From a virus, in the IMG/VR virus record IMGVR_UViG_3300024999_000038, positions 86,269 to 150,268 of that record: a stretch of DNA of 64,000 nt; one strand, 5' to 3'. The position numbers and the translations under genes are program-made. Below are positions 28,059 to 37,812 of this stretch, piece after piece (position 1 is the stretch's first letter; every line of letters starts with the position of its first letter). Below the pieces are notes generated by a model that saw only the letters and a program-made list of their open reading frames with translations, was not told the DNA's origin and searched no databases.

Positions 28059-28490
28059 ATGCAAGTAGTAAATAAAGTTGCACAACATAATCAACCACAA
28101 CAATTTAATAGAGGAGACATTTACTTAGCTACAGTTGAAAATAATGTCGGAGGGTCAGTGCAAAATATTTGTCAGAGACCAATGATTATAATTTCAAATC
28201 CTATGAGTTTACTGCACTCGCCTGTGATTCACGCAATTCCATTATCTTCTAAGACTTTTAAGCGATGGATTCCAACTCACGTTTCTGTACCTATGGCTAG
28301 TAGTGGTTTATTAAAGGATTCAATTGCACTTTGCGAACAAGTAATGTTGCTCCCGAAAGAGGTTTTTAGTAAAAAAATTGGCACATGCAGTAGTTTAATT
28401 GTAAACAAATTAGAAGAGGGTTTAATGGTACAATTCGGGTTGTTTAATCATAGTCAAAATGTAAGAAACAATGTTGCTTATGCAAATTAA
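28059..28490 (+). CDS. MazF/PemK family protein (orphan, divergent)
   Basis: RGDIYLA, QRPMIIISN, IPLSS, PTHVSV, GLLKDSIALCEQV align with B. subtilis NdoA/EndoA motifs; no MazE upstream. Confidence 0.88.
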   Translation: MQVVNKVAQHNQPQQFNRGDIYLATVENNVGGSVQNICQRPMIIISNPMSLLHSPVIHAIPLSSKTFKRWIPTHVSVPMASSGLLKDSIALCEQVMLLPKEVFSKKIGTCSSLIVNKLEEGLMVQFGLFNHSQNVRNNVAYAN

Positions 28491-28512: not shown

Positions 28513-30111
28513 TTGGGGAAAATGAAAACTACAGAACAGTATAGACAAGATTTAGAAGAATACAATTTAAAATATAATACAAAAATAGAGTTAAAGAATG
28601 GAGTTGAATATAATGGTGCTAATACTAAAATATTACATATTTGTTCGTGTGGTAAAGAGTGGTTAGTTTCACCTTCAGGCGTTATAAATAGTAGTTCGAA
28701 AACAAGTTGTGGTTATACGTTTGCAGAAAAAGGAATCGATAATCTAGGGTATAATTTTTTAGAAAAATATTGGGATTATAAAACAAATAACGAATTAGGA
28801 ATTGATCCTTGGAAAATTAGTTGTAGTTCTGGAAAAGAAGTTTATATATTTTGCCAAGAGAAAGATTATCATGGAAGTTATAAAGTACGTTGTGCTGATT
28901 TTAGTAATGGAAACAGGTGTGGTTATTGTCAAGGATACTATTTGGTTCATCCTTTAGATAGTTATGGACAGTATTTAATTGATTCATTTGGAATAACCGC
29001 ACTAGAACTGTATTGGGATTATAATATAAACACTGTTGATCCTTGGAAGATTACAAAACAATCAAATAAGATGGTATATATTAAATGTCAGAGGAAATAT
29101 TATCATGGAAGTTATGGCATCAGGTGCAATGATTTTATAAAAGGAGATAGATGTGGATATTGTGGAGGTAAAAAAGTACATCTATTAGATAGTCTAGGAA
29201 CGTTACATCCAAAATCACTAGAATTATGGTCAAATATAAACGAAAAATCCCCATATGAATATATGCCTGGGAGCGATATGGAGGTTTGGTTTAAATGTGA
29301 CAACAAGAGACATGAAGATTACCAAAAAAGAATATATAATGCAGTAAACTGTAATTTTGGATGTCCGACATGTTCACAAGAACAAAAAGAATCTATCATG
29401 GCCTCCACACTAAAACAAGTACTAAGATATGAATATAGTCACACAAAATGGGAATATGATGCAGGATTTAAAATAGATAATAGTATTAGTAGGTATGATA
29501 TTTATGTTCCAGAATTGAATAACTTATTAATAGAATGCCAAAGTGAATATCACGATGATGAAAAACATATTATTAACGATCAACTTAAAAAACAGTTTGC
29601 TATTGATAATGGATATGAATATATAGCAATAGACAAAAGAGATTTTTCCATAATAGAAATACTAAGGTTCTTTATACCATACATGGATAAAATTCCTGAT
29701 TATGTACAATTAAATAAAAATACTACAAGAGGTTGGGATATAGAAAACGCTCAAAAATTGTTAGATAGTGGTCATACATATATAAATATAGCTAATATAT
29801 TAGAAACATCAGTTACCGCGATACGTGCAAGTGTAGGAGACAATGGGTTAATCAAACCAAATAATTATACTTTTCAAGGTGAAAATATTGTTTGTCTGTC
29901 TATGGATAATAGTTTAATAAAAACATATAATTCTTGCAGTTCTGCCGCCAAAGATTTAGGAAAAGCAAATGGAACAAGTATTAGTTCATGTCTAACTAAG
30001 AAGCCTCGTTCAGACACAGGGAAAATTCGTGAAACAGCTTTTGGTTTTAAATGGATGTATTTAGTAGATTATGAAAATATGATTAAAGATCAAAATAATA
30101 AACCTCCGTAA
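28513..30111 (+). CDS. Putative homing endonuclease: zinc-ribbon repeats, PD-(D/E)xK nuclease, NUMOD1-like tail
   Basis: Three repeats of WDY..N..DPWKI...C...YHGSY..RC.DF..G.RCGYC; YDIYVPELNNLLIECQSEYH; C-terminal YNSCSSAAKDLG...TAFGFKWMY. Confidence 0.75.
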   Translation: MGKMKTTEQYRQDLEEYNLKYNTKIELKNGVEYNGANTKILHICSCGKEWLVSPSGVINSSSKTSCGYTFAEKGIDNLGYNFLEKYWDYKTNNELGIDPWKISCSSGKEVYIFCQEKDYHGSYKVRCADFSNGNRCGYCQGYYLVHPLDSYGQYLIDSFGITALELYWDYNINTVDPWKITKQSNKMVYIKCQRKYYHGSYGIRCNDFIKGDRCGYCGGKKVHLLDSLGTLHPKSLELWSNINEKSPYEYMPGSDMEVWFKCDNKRHEDYQKRIYNAVNCNFGCPTCSQEQKESIMASTLKQVLRYEYSHTKWEYDAGFKIDNSISRYDIYVPELNNLLIECQSEYHDDEKHIINDQLKKQFAIDNGYEYIAIDKRDFSIIEILRFFIPYMDKIPDYVQLNKNTTRGWDIENAQKLLDSGHTYINIANILETSVTAIRASVGDNGLIKPNNYTFQGENIVCLSMDNSLIKTYNSCSSAAKDLGKANGTSISSCLTKKPRSDTGKIRETAFGFKWMYLVDYENMIKDQNNKPP

Positions 30112-30162: not shown

Positions 30163-30780
30163 ATGGTTGAAACATTAATATTTAGTCTGCTGTGTCTAAA
30201 AACAAAATTTGATCTAAAACTAGGCAAACTCCAAATACATAAAGAATCATACCTAATAAAACCAATGCTAAAAAGATGGAGCATCTATCCTGTAATATTT
30301 ATGTCAATATTCTATGTCTATCTACAATACACAATAATGAATCAGAATTACTATTTTCTTCAATATCAACACATAATAAAGAATGCTATATTAGGTTCAT
30401 ATATGATTCTAGGGCTTGATGTTTTGTTTAGGCATGAAAAGTATAAAGAGTATATTATAGCCTGTTGTAGTCTCTTGTGTGGCTTTACATTGAATAAGAT
30501 TGTAATGCATTTCAATAATAATCTCATGCCAATCTTCCCATCAATATCTTATTCAACAGGTTACACGCAATATGGTATGATTACGAATGCTTCTAAATTT
30601 AGCGATTTTCATGTTCTCGGAGATCATACAACAAGATTGATATTTTTGGCCGATGTGTTTGATATAGGTGGTAGCATTTGGTCGGTCGGGGATATTTTAG
30701 TTAGATTATTTGCTTTTATAATTGTGTATTATGCGGGTAAAGTAGTTAGTAAAATGCATACGAACAAAATATTGAATTAA
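30163..30780 (+). CDS. DUF5317-like membrane protein
   Basis: GFTLNKIVMHFNNNLMPI and HVL...TRLIFLADVFD...SVGDIL motifs; several hydrophobic helices. Confidence 0.7.
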   Translation: MVETLIFSLLCLKTKFDLKLGKLQIHKESYLIKPMLKRWSIYPVIFMSIFYVYLQYTIMNQNYYFLQYQHIIKNAILGSYMILGLDVLFRHEKYKEYIIACCSLLCGFTLNKIVMHFNNNLMPIFPSISYSTGYTQYGMITNASKFSDFHVLGDHTTRLIFLADVFDIGGSIWSVGDILVRLFAFIIVYYAGKVVSKMHTNKILN

Positions 30781-30865: not shown

Positions 30866-31687
30866 ATGCAGAGTGTAACAAATGCTTTGTTGAATACAGT
30901 ATTTGTAAGTTTACCAGAGGAAACATTTTACGCAATGATGACATTGATATTTTTGAAAAGATATGATCTATTAGATTTTAGAATGTGGAAAGAAAACATT
31001 ACAACACTTATGATACCTATAATTCCAGTATCAATATTAATTAATATATTTAGATATATTATAATTATAGATAAAATACAAATGATGATTATTACAATAG
31101 TGATATTTTACATATTGTTATTATATATTGTTATAAAATATAAAGTTGAAGATATTGAAAGAATACATATGAAAGTTTTATTAAACTTAGCATATAGCGT
31201 AGCAATATGGGTGTTCTTAGAAGAGATAACCTATCCATCATTATTGTTTTTGATGAATTACCCACTCGAATTTATATCAAATAATATATTTTGGAATTTT
31301 ATTTTAAGTGTTCCTTCAAGGATAATTGCTATGGTTATAATAATATACAACATAGTTAAAAATAGTAACGAAATAAGCAATATAGAAGTTCTTGACGTCA
31401 TTACTAATAATAAACTTTATCGAAGAATAATGCTTTTCTGCACAATGTCATTTATTTTATTATCATTATTCTTAATTAAACTTATTTGGTGTAATAAAAT
31501 ATTTGACAATAAGGTTCCTTTGTTTGAAAAGATTATTATTACTGAATCGCTTTTTGTTTTGCCAGTAGTTGTAATATTCCTAATAATTATATTAATCAAC
31601 AATCTTCTTGTAAAAGAAAAACAAATACAACAGTCTTATGAAAATCTTGTTATGCAAGACGACATAATGCTTGATGTAGAAGATTGA
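30866..31687 (+). CDS. Polytopic membrane protein, putative kinase-less peptide receptor 1
   Basis: About 7 hydrophobic segments; directly upstream of the agrD-like gene; ends EKQIQQSYENLVMQDDIMLDVED with no HisKA/HATPase; paralog of 33689-34552. Confidence 0.6.
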   Translation: MQSVTNALLNTVFVSLPEETFYAMMTLIFLKRYDLLDFRMWKENITTLMIPIIPVSILINIFRYIIIIDKIQMMIITIVIFYILLLYIVIKYKVEDIERIHMKVLLNLAYSVAIWVFLEEITYPSLLFLMNYPLEFISNNIFWNFILSVPSRIIAMVIIIYNIVKNSNEISNIEVLDVITNNKLYRRIMLFCTMSFILLSLFLIKLIWCNKIFDNKVPLFEKIIITESLFVLPVVVIFLIIILINNLLVKEKQIQQSYENLVMQDDIMLDVED

Positions 31688-31709
31688 TATGAAAGGAGGT
31701 GAAAAATTA

Positions 31710-31826
31710 ATGAAAAAGTACGCAATTATCGCTGGAGTGGTTGCTTTGTCAGCCGCAATGTTCTCAAATGTATTTGCTTCTATGTTCTTTTCTCATCAAC
31801 CAAAAACTCCTAATTGCATGAAATAA
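31710..31826 (+). CDS. agrD: AgrD-like cyclic lactone autoinducer propeptide, 38 aa (MKKYAIIAGVVALSAAMFSNVFASMFFSHQPKTPNCMK); not in the ORF track
   Basis: Strong RBS GAAAGGAGGTG; hydrophobic leader; x-x-F-F-x-HQP-K-x-P motif as in clostridial AgrD (CLWFT|HQPEEP, CPWII|HQPKVP); agrB 1 kb downstream. Confidence 0.88.
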   Translation: MKKYAIIAGVVALSAAMFSNVFASMFFSHQPKTPNCMK

Positions 31827-31838
31827 TTTTACCATACA

Positions 31839-31868
31839 TATAGGGAAGGACTTCGGTTCTTCCCTATA
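31839..31868 (+). terminator. Hairpin after agrD with cUUCGg tetraloop
   Basis: TATAGGGAAGGAC-TTCG-GTTCTTCCCTATA, 13-bp stem with one G-U. Confidence 0.8.
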
Positions 31869-31908: not shown

Positions 31909-31936
31909 TTGACATATCTCCCAAATATGGTAAGAT
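31909..31936 (+). promoter_or_regulatory. sigmaA-like promoter for HTH-MazF/agrB
   Basis: TTGACA-16 bp-TAAGAT with extended TG. Confidence 0.65.
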
Positions 31937-32003: not shown

Positions 32004-32792
32004 ATGTTTGAAAAATTTATTGGTAAAAAAGAGAGTACTATTACTGAGGAGAATACAAAAAAGGATTTCAAAAAGTTGGCTACATATGTTACTTTAGCCA
32101 AAGGCCCAAGAACTATTAATGGATTCGCAGCAGACTGCAAAACAAATGCTGACTATCTAGCTGATATTATCCATGTAAAAATCAATTCTTATCCTCAAGT
32201 TCAATTTCTGAAAATAATATCTGAAAATTCACAAGGCAGAGTTTCATTAGATGATCTTAAATTATCTTGTGGATATTCTTTATATGAACATAATGATATG
32301 GAGCAAATAAAAAATATTAATGTTCGCAGAGGATGGTTTTGTTACGTAAATCTAGGCCAAGTTTTGGACTCGGAATATGGGGGAAATCGAATGTGTTTGG
32401 TAGTGCAAAACGACGTAGGGAATCATTTCTCAAGCACATCAATTATTTTACCATTGACTTCTAGAAAATCAAAAGTAAAGCTTCCTACTCACGTCGAAGT
32501 TGGAATAAAAAATTGCGGATTACCGCAAGATTCGATTGTTAGTTGTGAGCAAATTCGTTGCGTATCGAAAAGGAGACTTATTCAAAATGGAATAGTCCAG
32601 AAAGTATCAGAATGTCCTCCAGATGTAATGTTAAAGGTAGAGGTGGCTTTATTAAAAGCACAAGGAGTTATACATCTTAAAATGAATGAACAGGAAGCTA
32701 TTCAGCACTTAATGAACATGAATACCCAAAAAACATACCAGTATCAAAATAATTATGCTAGTGCAGGACAGCAGGTGGCCTATGCACGATAA
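32004..32792 (+). CDS. XRE-like HTH fused to a MazF/PemK endoribonuclease domain
   Basis: N-terminal AKGPRTINGFAADC...YLADII..P...LKIISENSQGRVSLDDLK..CGY HTH-like segment; C-terminal RRG, SEYGGNR, QNDVGNHFS, PLTS, KLPTHVEV, DSIVSCEQIRCVSKRRL with catalytic Arg and Thr positions retained. Confidence 0.85.
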   Translation: MFEKFIGKKESTITEENTKKDFKKLATYVTLAKGPRTINGFAADCKTNADYLADIIHVKINSYPQVQFLKIISENSQGRVSLDDLKLSCGYSLYEHNDMEQIKNINVRRGWFCYVNLGQVLDSEYGGNRMCLVVQNDVGNHFSSTSIILPLTSRKSKVKLPTHVEVGIKNCGLPQDSIVSCEQIRCVSKRRLIQNGIVQKVSECPPDVMLKVEVALLKAQGVIHLKMNEQEAIQHLMNMNTQKTYQYQNNYASAGQQVAYAR

Positions 32793-32808: not shown

Positions 32809-33516
32809 ATGTTTTCAGTTCAAGATATTTCTGATCAATTGGCTACTAAACTATCAAAAAAAATATCATTAGATAAATTTAAAGAAGTTTGGGGGATCGT
32901 TATAAAAATATTCCCATCACTTGCTGATAAGCTTAATCTTGAACAAATAAAATCAATAAATGACTTATTAGGTTTATATAGTTATGGGATAACGGTATTT
33001 GTAGGATTACTATTCAAAGGCCCATTATTGATTATAATATCAATTATCTTTGGAATATTTACACCAATTATGTTTGTGGTAACCACATTTTCAAGTTTTA
33101 GGGTTGTAGCAGGTGGTTACCATATGCAGACATATTTAAGGTGTTGGATTGTAAGTTTTGTCACATTTATTGGATCTGCACTTATAGTCCAACACACACT
33201 TCAATATTGGTCTACCCAAAATATCTCTTCACTCTTCATATTTTGTATTTTAATGGGATTATATATAATTTTTAGATATATTCCTCGCGACACACCCAAT
33301 AAGCCAATTACAGAGCCATTGGAGATAGCAAAGTTTAAAAAATGGTCGTTATACTACTTAATTTCATGGGTAACAATAATGACCATTTTCTTATTCTTTA
33401 ATCTAAAATTAATTGTTATTTCAAGTTGTTTTGGATTATTATTGGAATTATTTTCAATAAGTAAAATTGGTTATAGTCTATATTCCCTTGTAGATGATAT
33501 TGGTATACATAAATAA
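32809..33516 (+). CDS. agrB: AgrB family peptide-processing membrane cysteine peptidase
   Basis: YSYG, FRVVAGGYHMQTYLRC (catalytic His/Cys), PRDTPNKPI; multiple TM helices. Confidence 0.93.
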   Translation: MFSVQDISDQLATKLSKKISLDKFKEVWGIVIKIFPSLADKLNLEQIKSINDLLGLYSYGITVFVGLLFKGPLLIIISIIFGIFTPIMFVVTTFSSFRVVAGGYHMQTYLRCWIVSFVTFIGSALIVQHTLQYWSTQNISSLFIFCILMGLYIIFRYIPRDTPNKPITEPLEIAKFKKWSLYYLISWVTIMTIFLFFNLKLIVISSCFGLLLELFSISKIGYSLYSLVDDIGIHK

Positions 33517-33688: not shown

Positions 33689-34552
33689 ATGTCTATTACC
33701 AATGCTGTACTAAATCTACTATTTGTCTCCATCCCAGAAGAAGCATTTATAGCAATAATAGCTATAACATTCCTAAATAAACTAGATAATCTTTTCGATA
33801 TCTATATGTGGAAGAACAATCTCAAATGGCTTATGATAGCAACATTGCCCACATCAATATTAATTTGTGTTTTACGATTTGTAATGTCTGTTCCCCAAAA
33901 TATTGTAGTAAAATTAGCCATAATTATAATGATTGCTTCAATGATATACATAGTAATTAAAAACTCTGACAAAATTACTATTCTATTAATATTTAAAACA
34001 GCAATGTTTACATTAGCAGGATTTGTAATTACAGGAATATTGGAATACTCATATTGCCCAATAATATTCTCATTATTACATAAACCACAAGAATTTTTTA
34101 ATAATGTTTTCCTCTATAATTTTCTATTAGGTTTACCTGCAAGAGTCCTTTACACCTGTATTATCACTTTTATCATAATGAAGAAAAATGGCAAAGTTAA
34201 AGTAAATTTATTTGATACTTTAGTCAAAAGCAAATTAATCATTGGTATTTTCATTGCTACAATATTATCTGTAGTTTCATTAATTGCCTATGTTGCTAAA
34301 TTGATAGAAAATGAAAGCATTTTGTTTAGTTTTCAATTCATTGATCAATTTATTATCATTGTAATAATCACATCTGTACCAACTATTTTAATCACATTGT
34401 TATTGATAGTTATTAATTATTTAATATCAGGTGAGAAGGAAAATCAGCAAATGTACGAGAATGCTATGGGTAGTAGGGATGAGAATGAGGATATAAATGA
34501 GGATGGTAATAATAGTAGCGATGAAGATATTTATGAAAATTATTATGAATAA
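33689..34552 (+). CDS. Polytopic membrane protein, putative kinase-less peptide receptor 2
   Basis: Paralog of 30866-31687 (S.TNA.LN..FVS.PEE.F, D..MWK.N, LE...Y.P, N...NF.L..P.R, EK..QQ.YEN); highly acidic C-terminal tail; no kinase domain. Confidence 0.6.
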   Translation: MSITNAVLNLLFVSIPEEAFIAIIAITFLNKLDNLFDIYMWKNNLKWLMIATLPTSILICVLRFVMSVPQNIVVKLAIIIMIASMIYIVIKNSDKITILLIFKTAMFTLAGFVITGILEYSYCPIIFSLLHKPQEFFNNVFLYNFLLGLPARVLYTCIITFIIMKKNGKVKVNLFDTLVKSKLIIGIFIATILSVVSLIAYVAKLIENESILFSFQFIDQFIIIVIITSVPTILITLLLIVINYLISGEKENQQMYENAMGSRDENEDINEDGNNSSDEDIYENYYE

Positions 34553-35381: not shown

Positions 35382-36752
35382 ATGCTTAAAGAAAAATCGG
35401 TTGCACTCATGAGGGAACTAAATGTGTTAATTAAGAAGTATAGTTCAAACGACAAGGTAAGAAAATTAATTGTAGAAGAATTTGATAAAAGAAATATGAA
35501 GGGCAGTTTAGCGGTCGGCATCTTAAATGAAAATAGAGAGCTATCCACATTAGATATTGATGAAAGCAAAGATGTAATAATGTTATTTATTTTCACTATG
35601 AGTATGTATAATGCATTGACATATAAAGAGGAAGAAGATAAAGAGGCGTTGGGAGAAATTGAAGAAGGGTTAAGAATTGATCCTAAAAATTATTTTACTG
35701 AAATTGAAATTGAAAACCTAAATGACTATAAGTTTGAAAAGAAAATAGACAAAAAAGACGAAGTTATTATTTTCCCCAAAATGAGTAGAATTGCCCCTGA
35801 TTTCTTTTCAGGCTATATGTCAGGAAAGCATTTTGCAGAATTAGATGCAGGAAATGAATTTATCTATAATTTTAAGACTCAGCGTGACCCAATTATTGAT
35901 GTATCTGGAATGAAGAGGATACATTTAAATAAAACAAATGCAAAAGAAATTAGAGATGGCCTAATCTCAAAGAATCAATTCCCAACTACCATAGTAGTAA
36001 ATGTTCTTAAAGACGGTGAAGACGAGATATATTATGATGAGAAAACAGGCGATTTGTCTATTATTTCAGGTACTAAAAACCTTGTTGATGGAATGCATAG
36101 AAAAGTTGGTAATAGTTTGGCTCTCGCTATTGATCCAGACTTGGAGTTTAATTGGTTATTAGTTGTAACAAACTATAGTGAAATTAGAGCACAAAAATAT
36201 ATGGTGGAAATTAACAAGCAACAAAAAATGAAACAAGAACATATTAAAAATATGGATACTGCCAGTCTTGGAAATATTGTTGTTGATGTTATTAAAGATA
36301 TCAATAGTTCTGAATTTGCTGGACATATCAAAGATAGCGACAAGGAATTAGAACATGGAGGTTTAACTAGGAAGTCAATTTTAACTTTAGCAATTGAGGA
36401 AATATACAAAGATAAACTTGAAAACAAAACATTCATAAAACCTATCGCCAACCACATTACAAACGTTATGGATCATATTATTGCATTGAGAGTTGATGAG
36501 TTTATGAAATATCCTGAAGCCACACGTAAAGTAAGCTATATCAACCACAAGAATATGTTTGCAGGATATGTAGCTTTATCTGAGAGACTATATGGAGTTG
36601 AAAAATGGGATGACCTCCTTGAGGAAATTTTAGATAAAATTGATTTCAGTATGAAAAATTCTTTTTGGGAAGATATTGGATTGGGCAAAGAGTCCGATAT
36701 GAAGAAAACTACACGAAACAATCTATACGAATTCTTTCAAAAATTAATTTAA
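35382..36752 (+). CDS. SPbeta YopQ (SroE)-like protein with a DGQHR/DndB-like ParB-Srx domain
   Basis: RIDPKNYFTEIEI, IYNFKTQR, LNKTNAKEIRD, LVDGMHR and TNYSEIRAQ match the YopQ pattern as I recall it; about 460 aa; upstream of the YopR-like gene. Confidence 0.75.
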   Translation: MLKEKSVALMRELNVLIKKYSSNDKVRKLIVEEFDKRNMKGSLAVGILNENRELSTLDIDESKDVIMLFIFTMSMYNALTYKEEEDKEALGEIEEGLRIDPKNYFTEIEIENLNDYKFEKKIDKKDEVIIFPKMSRIAPDFFSGYMSGKHFAELDAGNEFIYNFKTQRDPIIDVSGMKRIHLNKTNAKEIRDGLISKNQFPTTIVVNVLKDGEDEIYYDEKTGDLSIISGTKNLVDGMHRKVGNSLALAIDPDLEFNWLLVVTNYSEIRAQKYMVEINKQQKMKQEHIKNMDTASLGNIVVDVIKDINSSEFAGHIKDSDKELEHGGLTRKSILTLAIEEIYKDKLENKTFIKPIANHITNVMDHIIALRVDEFMKYPEATRKVSYINHKNMFAGYVALSERLYGVEKWDDLLEEILDKIDFSMKNSFWEDIGLGKESDMKKTTRNNLYEFFQKLI

Positions 36753-36768: not shown

Positions 36769-37812
36769 ATGACTAAAAATGAAATCATTGATGAAACTAA
36801 AATCCAAGAAGTCGAAGAAAAATTAATGTTTGAAGTTGATCCTGAAGTTAAGGAAGAATTTTTAGAAAAGCAATTAAAATCAACTAGAAGTTATTATCGG
36901 TATATTTTAAAACTTGCCGATGAATTTGAAGTTAAATTAGGAAAACCAATTTACAATTTCAATACTGAAGAAAGAGATGAGTTATTGACTGTTCAATATA
37001 AAAACAAAAATATATTTGCATTTCAAACTGTTTTGTCTCCATTAAAAACTTATGTTGATTTTTGTATATCTCCTAAGAATTTAGTACGACACAATGAAAA
37101 TCGCTTTAGTAGTATCCTTACTTCAAACTACAAAGTTTATATCAGTAAACAAGCAAAAGAAAATTCTTATATCCCTTTATCTGAATGTAGAGAATTTCAA
37201 TCTAAATTAGCGAATTATCAAGACATGTTAATTCTTGAATTGCCAAATCTAGGAGTTAGAGGTCGTACTGAAAAAGGAAATACTCTTGAGGAACTGGTTA
37301 ATCTAAGGGAAAAAGATATTGAATGGGAGAAAAAGAGATTACATCTTACCAAAAACAATGGTGAAGAAAGATGGATTGAAGTTGATGATTACACTTTAGA
37401 TTTACTCAAGAAAACCATCAATCAAGATTTTTATATATCCAATAATGGATTAAAGACAAAACCGAACGACGATGGGGTATATGAACGTACAGAAAGGGGA
37501 AGAATGATTAATAAAACTGAATATGTATTTAGAATTCCAGGTAAGAATAAACATGGTAAGGTTGAATACCAATTTTTTGCTAGTAGAATCCAACGTATTC
37601 AAAAATGGTTAGGTAAACCGTATATTAGCATTAGTAATCTGTATTTTTCTGCTATTATAGAATACTCAAAGAAACTAAAAGAAGAGAAAGGTGAATTGAT
37701 TAGAGAAGATTATATTTCAATCAATCAAAGATTTGAATTTGGAGAAGATGGTGAGAAATATGTCTTTAAAACTAGAGAGCTTGTTGAATCATATCTTGAC
37801 GATGAGAGGTAA
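36769..37812 (+). CDS. SPbeta YopR (SroF/MrpR)-like repressor with tyrosine-recombinase fold
   Basis: EVKEEFL, E..LGKPIYNF, LKTYVDFCI, LANYQDMLILEL..GVRG, EELVNL, NG.ERWIEV, Y...NG; canonical HxxR motif absent. Confidence 0.78.
   Translation: MTKNEIIDETKIQEVEEKLMFEVDPEVKEEFLEKQLKSTRSYYRYILKLADEFEVKLGKPIYNFNTEERDELLTVQYKNKNIFAFQTVLSPLKTYVDFCISPKNLVRHNENRFSSILTSNYKVYISKQAKENSYIPLSECREFQSKLANYQDMLILELPNLGVRGRTEKGNTLEELVNLREKDIEWEKKRLHLTKNNGEERWIEVDDYTLDLLKKTINQDFYISNNGLKTKPNDDGVYERTERGRMINKTEYVFRIPGKNKHGKVEYQFFASRIQRIQKWLGKPYISISNLYFSAIIEYSKKLKEEKGELIREDYISINQRFEFGEDGEKYVFKTRELVESYLDDER

Follow-up and report, generated by a model that had tools for sequence, protein, structure and literature searches.

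Agr peptides are the best-studied quorum signals of Gram-positive bacteria, and the P-x-x-P tail is the part of the AgrD propeptide that AgrB recognises. [quoted passage not shown] The agr3 locus of this C. difficile phage comprises agrD, agrB and agrC (PMC3901668). Autoinducing peptides (AIPs) cyclised through Ser exist and are rare, and tail-less clostridial thiolactones rearrange to homodetic cyclopeptides, with the fate of tail-less Ser lactones left open (PMC8251862); both premises of the first-pass annotation of the locus analysed here, namely that Ser-lactone peptides exist and that some clostridial peptides rearrange to cyclopeptides, are described in that paper. For H. thermocellum, a Ser AIP without a tail has been predicted (cited in PMC8251862). 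The agrB and agrD genes of C. perfringens strain 13 share a transcript with two hypothetical genes, CPE1563 and CPE1562 (PMC2706048). In SPbeta, the genes of the arbitrium system, aimR-aimP, and yopM-P are located directly upstream of yopQ-yopR.

The locus described here can be compared with each of these systems. It shares with phiCDHM1 agr3 the phage-borne agrB and agrD, the lack of AgrA and the P-x-x-P tail. phiCDHM1 has an AgrC-type kinase, whereas none was found in this record, and the present locus adds a Ser ring, a co-varying protein with seven transmembrane (TM) helices, MazF domains and neighbours resembling yopQ and yopR. As in the Ser-lactone AIPs, the AgrD has Ser as its ring residue and the predicted product lacks a tail; those systems are bacterial and chromosomal and include AgrC and AgrA, whereas here a phage clade is fixed for Ser. 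With the arbitrium system of SPbeta-like Bacillus phages the locus has in common a small, predicted secreted peptide of many pherotypes encoded directly 5' of yopQ-yopR. The two systems have no sequence relation, the likeness being one of position and logic only. Moreover, the variable part of AgrD is internal, in contrast to the mature hexapeptide of arbitrium, which is C-terminal. A megablast search with the module and a tblastn search with AgrB (E 1e-5), each against 50,697 phage records, gave no match, and a 2025 review (PMC11945551) contains nothing like this module. What is new is the setting: a Ser-ring AgrD in a Clostridium phage clade, adjacent to yopQ/yopR-like genes and accompanied by a co-varying membrane protein (TM-A). 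The module around agrD may be more than a variant of known agr.

A predicted agrD gene in a large Clostridium phage

The window, i.e. the whole stretch of DNA analysed here, comprises the last 64 kb of one 150,268-bp IMG/VR virus record (linear, GC 28.5%), the completeness of which was given by CheckV as 71%. The source is a large Clostridium phage of the temperate type, and its agrD is part of a Clostridium phage clade. The plus strand carries all long ORFs of the window, and the features of the window described below lie on this strand.

The agrD ORF (31710..31826; 38 codons plus stop) encodes MKKYAIIAGVVALSAAMFSNVFASMFFSHQPKTPNCMK. A leader ending in VFA (codons 1-23, 31710-31778) is followed by Ser24 (codon TCT, 31779-31781), with which the predicted ring SMFFS (31779-31793) begins, and by the tail HQPKTPNCMK (31794-31823). 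The ribosome-binding site (RBS) read from the sequence, GAAAGGAGGTG (31691..31701), has its AGGAGG ending 10 nt 5' of the ATG and is kept in 19 of 19 related loci. Because another in-frame ATG, at 31689, overlaps this RBS and is not conserved, it was rejected and the start was placed at 31710. On the 3' side of agrD, a 13-bp stem with a UUCG loop (31839..31868) is likely a terminator or an RNA-stabilising element. Its folding energy is -19.4 kcal/mol (z -5.2; equally stable shuffles, 0 of 200), and the hairpin is kept in 19 loci, in which the changes in the stem are compensatory. A U-tract is absent 3' of the stem, and the hairpin does not figure in the list of the terminator scan. The 38-aa ORF with its strong RBS and the UUCG hairpin behind it, both pointed out by the first-pass annotation, are thus real features, with RBS, frame and hairpin kept in 19 related loci.

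Beyond the hairpin, a consensus scan found a promoter-like site (TTGACA-16-TAAGAT with a TG extension, 31909..31936; 10 of 12 matches) ahead of the operon of the MazF-fusion gene and agrB; since promoter-like matches are no commoner in the window than in shuffled sequences, the site is a weak candidate. Within the whole record, agrD is the sole frame with the motif [CS]-x4-[HQ]QP behind a plausible leader. Close copies of agrD in the protein collection are unnamed and carry no Pfam domain.

Serine at the position of the ring cysteine

A lack of similarity to the AgrD/cyclic lactone families had been named beforehand in the first-pass annotation as evidence against its own reading. We found that the NCBIfam model TIGR04223 (quorum_AgrD, cyclic lactone autoinducer peptide) matches the peptide with 22.4 bits (E 9.7e-5), the curated cut-off being 19, and that in a six-frame search of the genome it matches agrD with 20.8 bits, which was the sole such match in the 150-kb record. 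Pfam and PHROGs searches with the AgrD peptide gave no match.

For a comparison with bacterial sequences, we searched about 300 Clostridiaceae genomes, 296 of which were scored; 188 of these had an AgrD. We took 60 of the best matches and five AgrDs from other agr loci, which reduced to 62 different peptides with the pattern leader-[ST][ST]A-C-xxxx-[YH]QP[EK][EV]P[KE][CS]L[RK][ED][EK]. A custom HMM built from these chromosomal AgrDs matches the window peptide with 27.7 bits (E 1.8e-9) and all 16 of the distinct phage peptides (E 7e-11 to 5e-7). In the profile alignment, the phage pattern A-S-xxxx-[HY]QPxxPxC[ML]K corresponds to the bacterial A-C-xxxx-YQPeePKcLr. Ser24 is located opposite the ring Cys of the clostridial AgrDs, in agreement with what had been proposed from the window alone, and the phage tail [HY]QP[KQ][TS]P, including P-x-x-P, is homologous to the bacterial YQPEEP. 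The rings CLWFT and CPWII, which had served as references for that proposal, could be traced as well: one of the sampled clostridial AgrDs reads ...TSACLWFTHQPEEPKSLRDE, i.e. the CLWFT type, and C. difficile AgrD1 contains ...NSTCPWIIHQPK (PMC8534292).

The peptide has a lone Cys, residue 36, which lies in the C-terminal tail, as had been noted before, and aligns with a tail Cys present in many bacterial AgrDs. Because it is homologous to the tail Cys of AgrDs that have their own ring Cys, Cys36 is no alternative ring residue; only two residues follow it, and it was rejected in this role. Judged by this alignment, Cys36 is an ordinary feature of the clostridial AgrD tail, and the product of the ORF is a member of the AgrD family.

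Ring Cys is present in 61 of the 62 bacterial AgrDs, a sample that is biased to Cys because the best HMM matches were taken. The one Ser-type AgrD among the 62 is from a chromosomal Clostridiaceae locus with the order agrA-agrC-agrB-agrD and has the ring STYYV. This AgrD (locus L106, 4975-5109, G198:C3) reads ...SSVSTYYVYQPEVPKKLKK; its leader is amphipathic and not signal-peptide-like.

Ring pherotypes and selection on agrD

A word-based protein search with the 45-aa frame that starts at 31689 yielded four relatives of 38 aa. Scans of viral and metagenome contigs yielded 18 loci from metagenomes (three of them present as viral contigs too), and a scan of genome contigs yielded one contig, from a Clostridium sp. 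metagenome-assembled genome (MAG). The total is 20 loci if the window is included, and all the relatives stem from a few metagenomes that are themselves related. The 20 loci contain 15 different rings (SMFFS, SMFFT, SWLFS, SAYFL, SWLYS, SYFWS, SWLVS, SWLVA, SWLGA, SYFVT, SWYFA, SFFVT, SWFFA, SYFIS and SWLWS), so that at least 15 versions exist in related phages. Ten rings coexist in one metagenome assembly, Ga0209728 (L012-L018, L021, L025, L027 and L028), which suggests frequency-dependent selection for private pherotypes.

Pairwise differences were counted among the 17 distinct nucleotide versions of agrD, in all of which the frame, the RBS and the stop are kept. In leader codons 1-23, there were 947 synonymous and 601 non-synonymous differences (N/S 0.63), and the tail (codons 29-38) gave a similar picture, with 241 synonymous and 132 non-synonymous differences (N/S 0.55). 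The Ser24 codon (TCT, TCA or TCC) had 79 synonymous and 0 non-synonymous differences (N/S 0), whereas the ring codons 25-28 had 50 synonymous and 380 non-synonymous differences (N/S 7.6). Ser24 is thus invariant in the 20 loci despite three synonymous codons, and the four residues that follow it are hypervariable. With the conserved tail behind them, this pattern supports the earlier assignment of Ser as the ring residue. Cys36 is likewise invariant, through the codons TGC and TGT. Purifying selection thus acts on the leader, Ser24 and the tail, and diversifying selection on the ring, as expected of a translated gene and as known from the specificity groups of agr.

Gene order of the module and its bacterial counterparts

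The order of the module is the same in all loci: a small MazF, a variable ORF of the zinc-ribbon/HNH type, DUF5317, TM-A, agrD, a MazF-domain protein of 260-279 aa, agrB, an optional second membrane protein (TM-B), a small ORF, a yopQ-like gene and a yopR-like gene. In the window, the DUF5317 membrane protein is encoded at 30163..30780 (PF17248, E 5e-17). The MazF-domain protein that follows agrD (32004..32792; 262 aa; phrog_1936) carries a C-terminal MazF/PemK domain (PF02452, E 3.2e-22, residues 109-217) behind an N-terminal region of ~105 aa that has no Pfam match. The yopQ-like gene (35382-36752) has a 456-aa product and matches SPbeta yopQ in tblastn (E 1e-13). The product of the yopR-like gene (36769-37812) matches SPbeta YopR in BLASTP (E 1e-7) and gave no match to SPbeta YopP. 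Since the agr module lies upstream of these yopQ/yopR-like genes, it occupies the position that arbitrium has in SPbeta, which is a positional analogy. A single-sequence search of the record for SPbeta AimR was negative at E 1. In the 150-kb record, which is estimated to be 71% complete, the AgrC-type kinase domain (PF14501) had no match and the LytTR regulator domain (PF04397) gave nothing over the cut-off; the kinase and regulator of canonical agrBDCA were therefore not found there.

In Clostridiaceae genomes, a search with the TM-A profile matched small ORFs inside chromosomal agr loci. These loci read DUF5317, a membrane protein of ~160 aa, agrB and agrD, with DUF5317 as the first gene, and the MAG that bears a phage contig has a chromosomal agr locus of this DUF5317 type too. 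Over residues 7-167, TM-A is homologous to the ~160-aa protein (hhalign Prob 96.9%, E 1.6e-10), and both have IPE, R, E and P-S/A motifs in common. From their position, we infer that CPE1563 of C. perfringens corresponds to DUF5317 and CPE1562 to the ~160-aa protein. With DUF5317, the homologue of the ~160-aa protein, agrB and agrD, the phage thus has all four families of the clostridial agr operon in a rearranged form. The peptides of phage and chromosome agree in the leader type, in the five-residue spacing of the ring and in the [YH]QPxxPxC[LM] tail. They differ in the ring residue, which is Ser in the phage. Furthermore, in the phage agrD precedes agrB and is separated from it by a MazF-domain gene; the phage protein corresponding to the ~160-aa protein has 273 aa, with two additional TM helices and an additional conserved acidic cytoplasmic tail; and the phage has an optional second paralogue of it.

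In an alignment of 24 phage and bacterial DUF5317 sequences (window, L011-L028, L036, L037, L041, L042 and L107), H150, D167, S174-x-G176-D177, N111, N118 and M122-P123 are invariant. These residues look like those of an active site, and DUF5317 is perhaps an intramembrane protease that would trim the AgrD leader.

TM-A, a membrane protein that co-varies with the ring

TM-A (30866..31687) is a 273-aa protein encoded directly 5' of agrD, with its stop 22 nt before the ATG. The AF2 model (pLDDT 93.6) comprises seven TM helices, and its C-terminus forms a long helix in the cytoplasm. TM1-loop1-TM2 and the acidic cytoplasmic tail (KEKQIQQ.YE.LV.QDD...DVED) are conserved, and TM3 to TM7 are variable. 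The identity of TM-A proteins follows the ring: it is 71-100% between loci with the same ring, 68% on average where three of the four ring residues are common, and about 46% where none or one is (Mantel rho 0.43, p 0.0005). No such relation was found between the ring and the identity of DUF5317 or of the MazF-fusion protein (rho about 0), and TM-A is itself uncorrelated with both of these flanking genes. The coupling of TM-A to the ring could partly result from physical linkage; ~170 nt of conserved DNA lie between the variable parts of the two, so that recombination could have uncoupled them.

An exhaustive HMMER search for the TM-A family gave 118 cluster representatives, the full-length ones having 240-330 aa. 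None is of kinase length, and those that we looked up come from metagenomes only. TM-A had no match among Pfam, NCBIfam or PHROG families, nor in a sequence search of the PDB. In fold searches, Foldseek E values were above 1 and the best VIA match had a Z of 7.9, which is in the noise range of helical bundles. The possibility that TM-A is derived from an AgrC sensor was considered and received no support in profile comparison, as hhalign of the 91-member TM-A family against one clostridial AgrC sensor and against a profile of 8, which represent one AgrC lineage with fast-diverging domains, gave a Prob of 0.2-0.3%. Comparison of the family with NCBIfam gave no consistent match. Hints of AgrC came from the name of an Atlas cluster (score 0.93) and from sub-threshold AgrC and SpoIIGA matches of single bacterial homologues.

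It is about equally likely that TM-A is the receptor of the peptide and that it is a ring-specific maturation or export factor. A receptor would be in line with the variable membrane core, the conserved cytoplasmic parts, the matching to the ring and the fact that no other receptor was found in the record. A maturation or export factor is suggested by the homology of the TM-A core to a protein encoded beside agrB in bacterial producer operons, and some of the bacteria with such a homologue beside agrB have a kinase elsewhere.

TM-B (33689..34552) is a 287-aa paralogue of TM-A (32% identity, E 8e-28). It is optional in the related phages, and in L020, L021 and L024 none is seen in the interval from agrB to the yopQ-like gene. 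No match to TM-B came up in a scan of genome contigs. At least three sequence types of TM-B occur (window 33689-34552; L011 4858-5691; L014 3377-4168; L025 5082-5891). In L011, TM-B is followed by a second gene resembling the MazF fusion.

AgrB and the predicted maturation of the peptide

The agrB gene (32809..33516; 235 aa; PF04647, E 4.7e-35) gave the single match of an AgrB search of the 150-kb record. It starts 983 nt 3' of agrD, with the hairpin, the promoter-like site and the MazF-domain gene lying between, and wherever a related locus extends far enough, its module also contains an intact AgrB. His105 and Cys112 in the motif GGYHxxxYxxC, which we take to be the catalytic pair from what is known of S. 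aureus AgrB, are invariant among 12 phage AgrBs. The identity of AgrB is only weakly related to that of the ring (rho 0.27, p 0.018), and AgrB has two N-terminal forms that are independent of the ring; L011 and L012 both have SMFFT and differ in the AgrB form. These observations fit a recognition of AgrD by AgrB through the conserved tail.

A ring of five residues closed by Ser, either as a lactone or as a rearranged cyclopeptide, appears to be the best reading of the product. AgrB would cut off the [HY]QP tail after residue 28, forming an acyl-enzyme on the AgrB Cys, which the hydroxyl of Ser24 would then attack to give the five-residue lactone S-M-F-F-S. The leader consists of MKK, a hydrophobic stretch and S-N-V-F-A, the V and the A standing at -3 and -1. 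Its resemblance to a Sec signal peptide makes removal between V-F-A and S, immediately before Ser24, probable; in the bacterial clostridial AgrDs, the leaders end with SSA or TSA directly before the ring Cys. In the tail-less ring, an O-to-N acyl shift onto the free amine, plausible by general peptide chemistry, could yield a homodetic cyclopentapeptide, and the final signal may be cyclo(SMFFS), held by amide bonds alone. The released peptide would act as a pherotype-specific extracellular signal, with TM-A as its putative specificity partner, either as peptide receptor or as ring-specific maturation/export factor.

Alternative explanations

The same ORF could instead give a linear peptide that is exported by Sec, cleaved between VFA and S and possibly trimmed, and the variable N-terminus of which confers specificity as in Phr, AimP and the competence pheromones, with AgrB being uninvolved. 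The n-, h- and c-regions of the leader, and its V and A at positions -3 and -1, would suit such a peptide, as would the placing of agrB in a separate transcription unit behind the hairpin and the promoter-like site. However, chromosomal AgrDs have the same type of leader (SSA or TSA before C) and are encoded directly after agrB, the tail with the P-x-x-P that AgrB recognises is conserved under purifying selection, and every locus long enough to show it has an intact AgrB. We therefore regard a linear product as unlikely. About the same low probability is given to the view that the Ser peptide mainly mimics host AIPs and so agonises or blocks the Agr receptor of the host. In its favour, one bacterial genome has the ring CMFFT, the Cys twin of the phage SMFFT and close to SMFFS, and no kinase or regulator of the phage's own was found in the record. 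This was, however, the only case, as a phage twin exists for 1 of the 62 bacterial rings, and the ring patterns differ, bacterial rings being mostly C-x-W-x-x and phage rings S-W-x-x-x or S-[YFM]-F-x-x; mimicry is thus not the general rule and was rejected as such. In the MAG with the phage contig, the binning of which is uncertain, the host carries the ring CFWFS and the phage contig encodes SWLWS. The ten pherotypes within one metagenome and the co-variation of ring and TM-A also favour a channel owned by the phage. A private phage channel fits better than host mimicry, with cross-talk being possible.

A variable peptide coupled to a variable adjacent membrane protein, in a module that also contains MazF-type toxin domains, might also be expected of a toxin or bacteriocin-like peptide with TM-A as its immunity protein. 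The homology of the peptide to signalling AgrDs is, however, clear, a ring of five residues would make a very small bacteriocin, and the core of TM-A has a homologue in ordinary chromosomal agr operons, so that we consider this function very improbable. As for a chance or decayed frame that is not translated, the small size of the ORF alone would speak for it; the 17 nucleotide versions that retain frame, RBS and stop, and the predominance of synonymous changes in the leader, Ser24 and the tail, leave this view a negligible probability. By comparison, we think it probable, on the strength of sequence comparisons, that the ORF encodes a functional AgrD propeptide from which AgrB makes a ring that serves as a pherotype-specific signal, with TM-A as the specificity partner.

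A possible communication system in phages

A broader reading, which we put forward tentatively and hold to be possible rather than probable, is that Ser-ring signalling owned by the phage replaces arbitrium in SPbeta-like Clostridium phages. TM-A would read the peptide, and the MazF-domain proteins and the yopR-like repressor would set the choice between lysis and lysogeny. If this is true, each phage pherotype makes its own cyclic pentapeptide, which is read by the kinase-less 7-TM protein TM-A via its conserved cytoplasmic tail. The whole phage clade is fixed for the ring Ser and has at least 15 pherotypes, each with its own version of TM-A. The locus thereby makes several questions accessible to experiment: ring closure through Ser by a clostridial AgrB, the fate of a tail-less lactone, the role of the uncharacterised genes that accompany agrB and agrD in clostridial operons, and communication by peptide pherotypes in phages other than Bacillus phages.

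Two further observations concern the remaining genes of the module. It contains two MazF/PemK-domain proteins (28059-28490 and 32004-32792), with no recognisable MazE beside either. The ORF in the slot between the small MazF and DUF5317 (28513-30111) varies by locus, from about 290 to 600 aa in L011-L028; in the window, it encodes DUF4379 zinc ribbons and a NUMOD1 domain, and in L001 and L004 HNH-like ORFs are found elsewhere in the module. This variable slot appears to be a hot spot for genes of the homing-endonuclease type.
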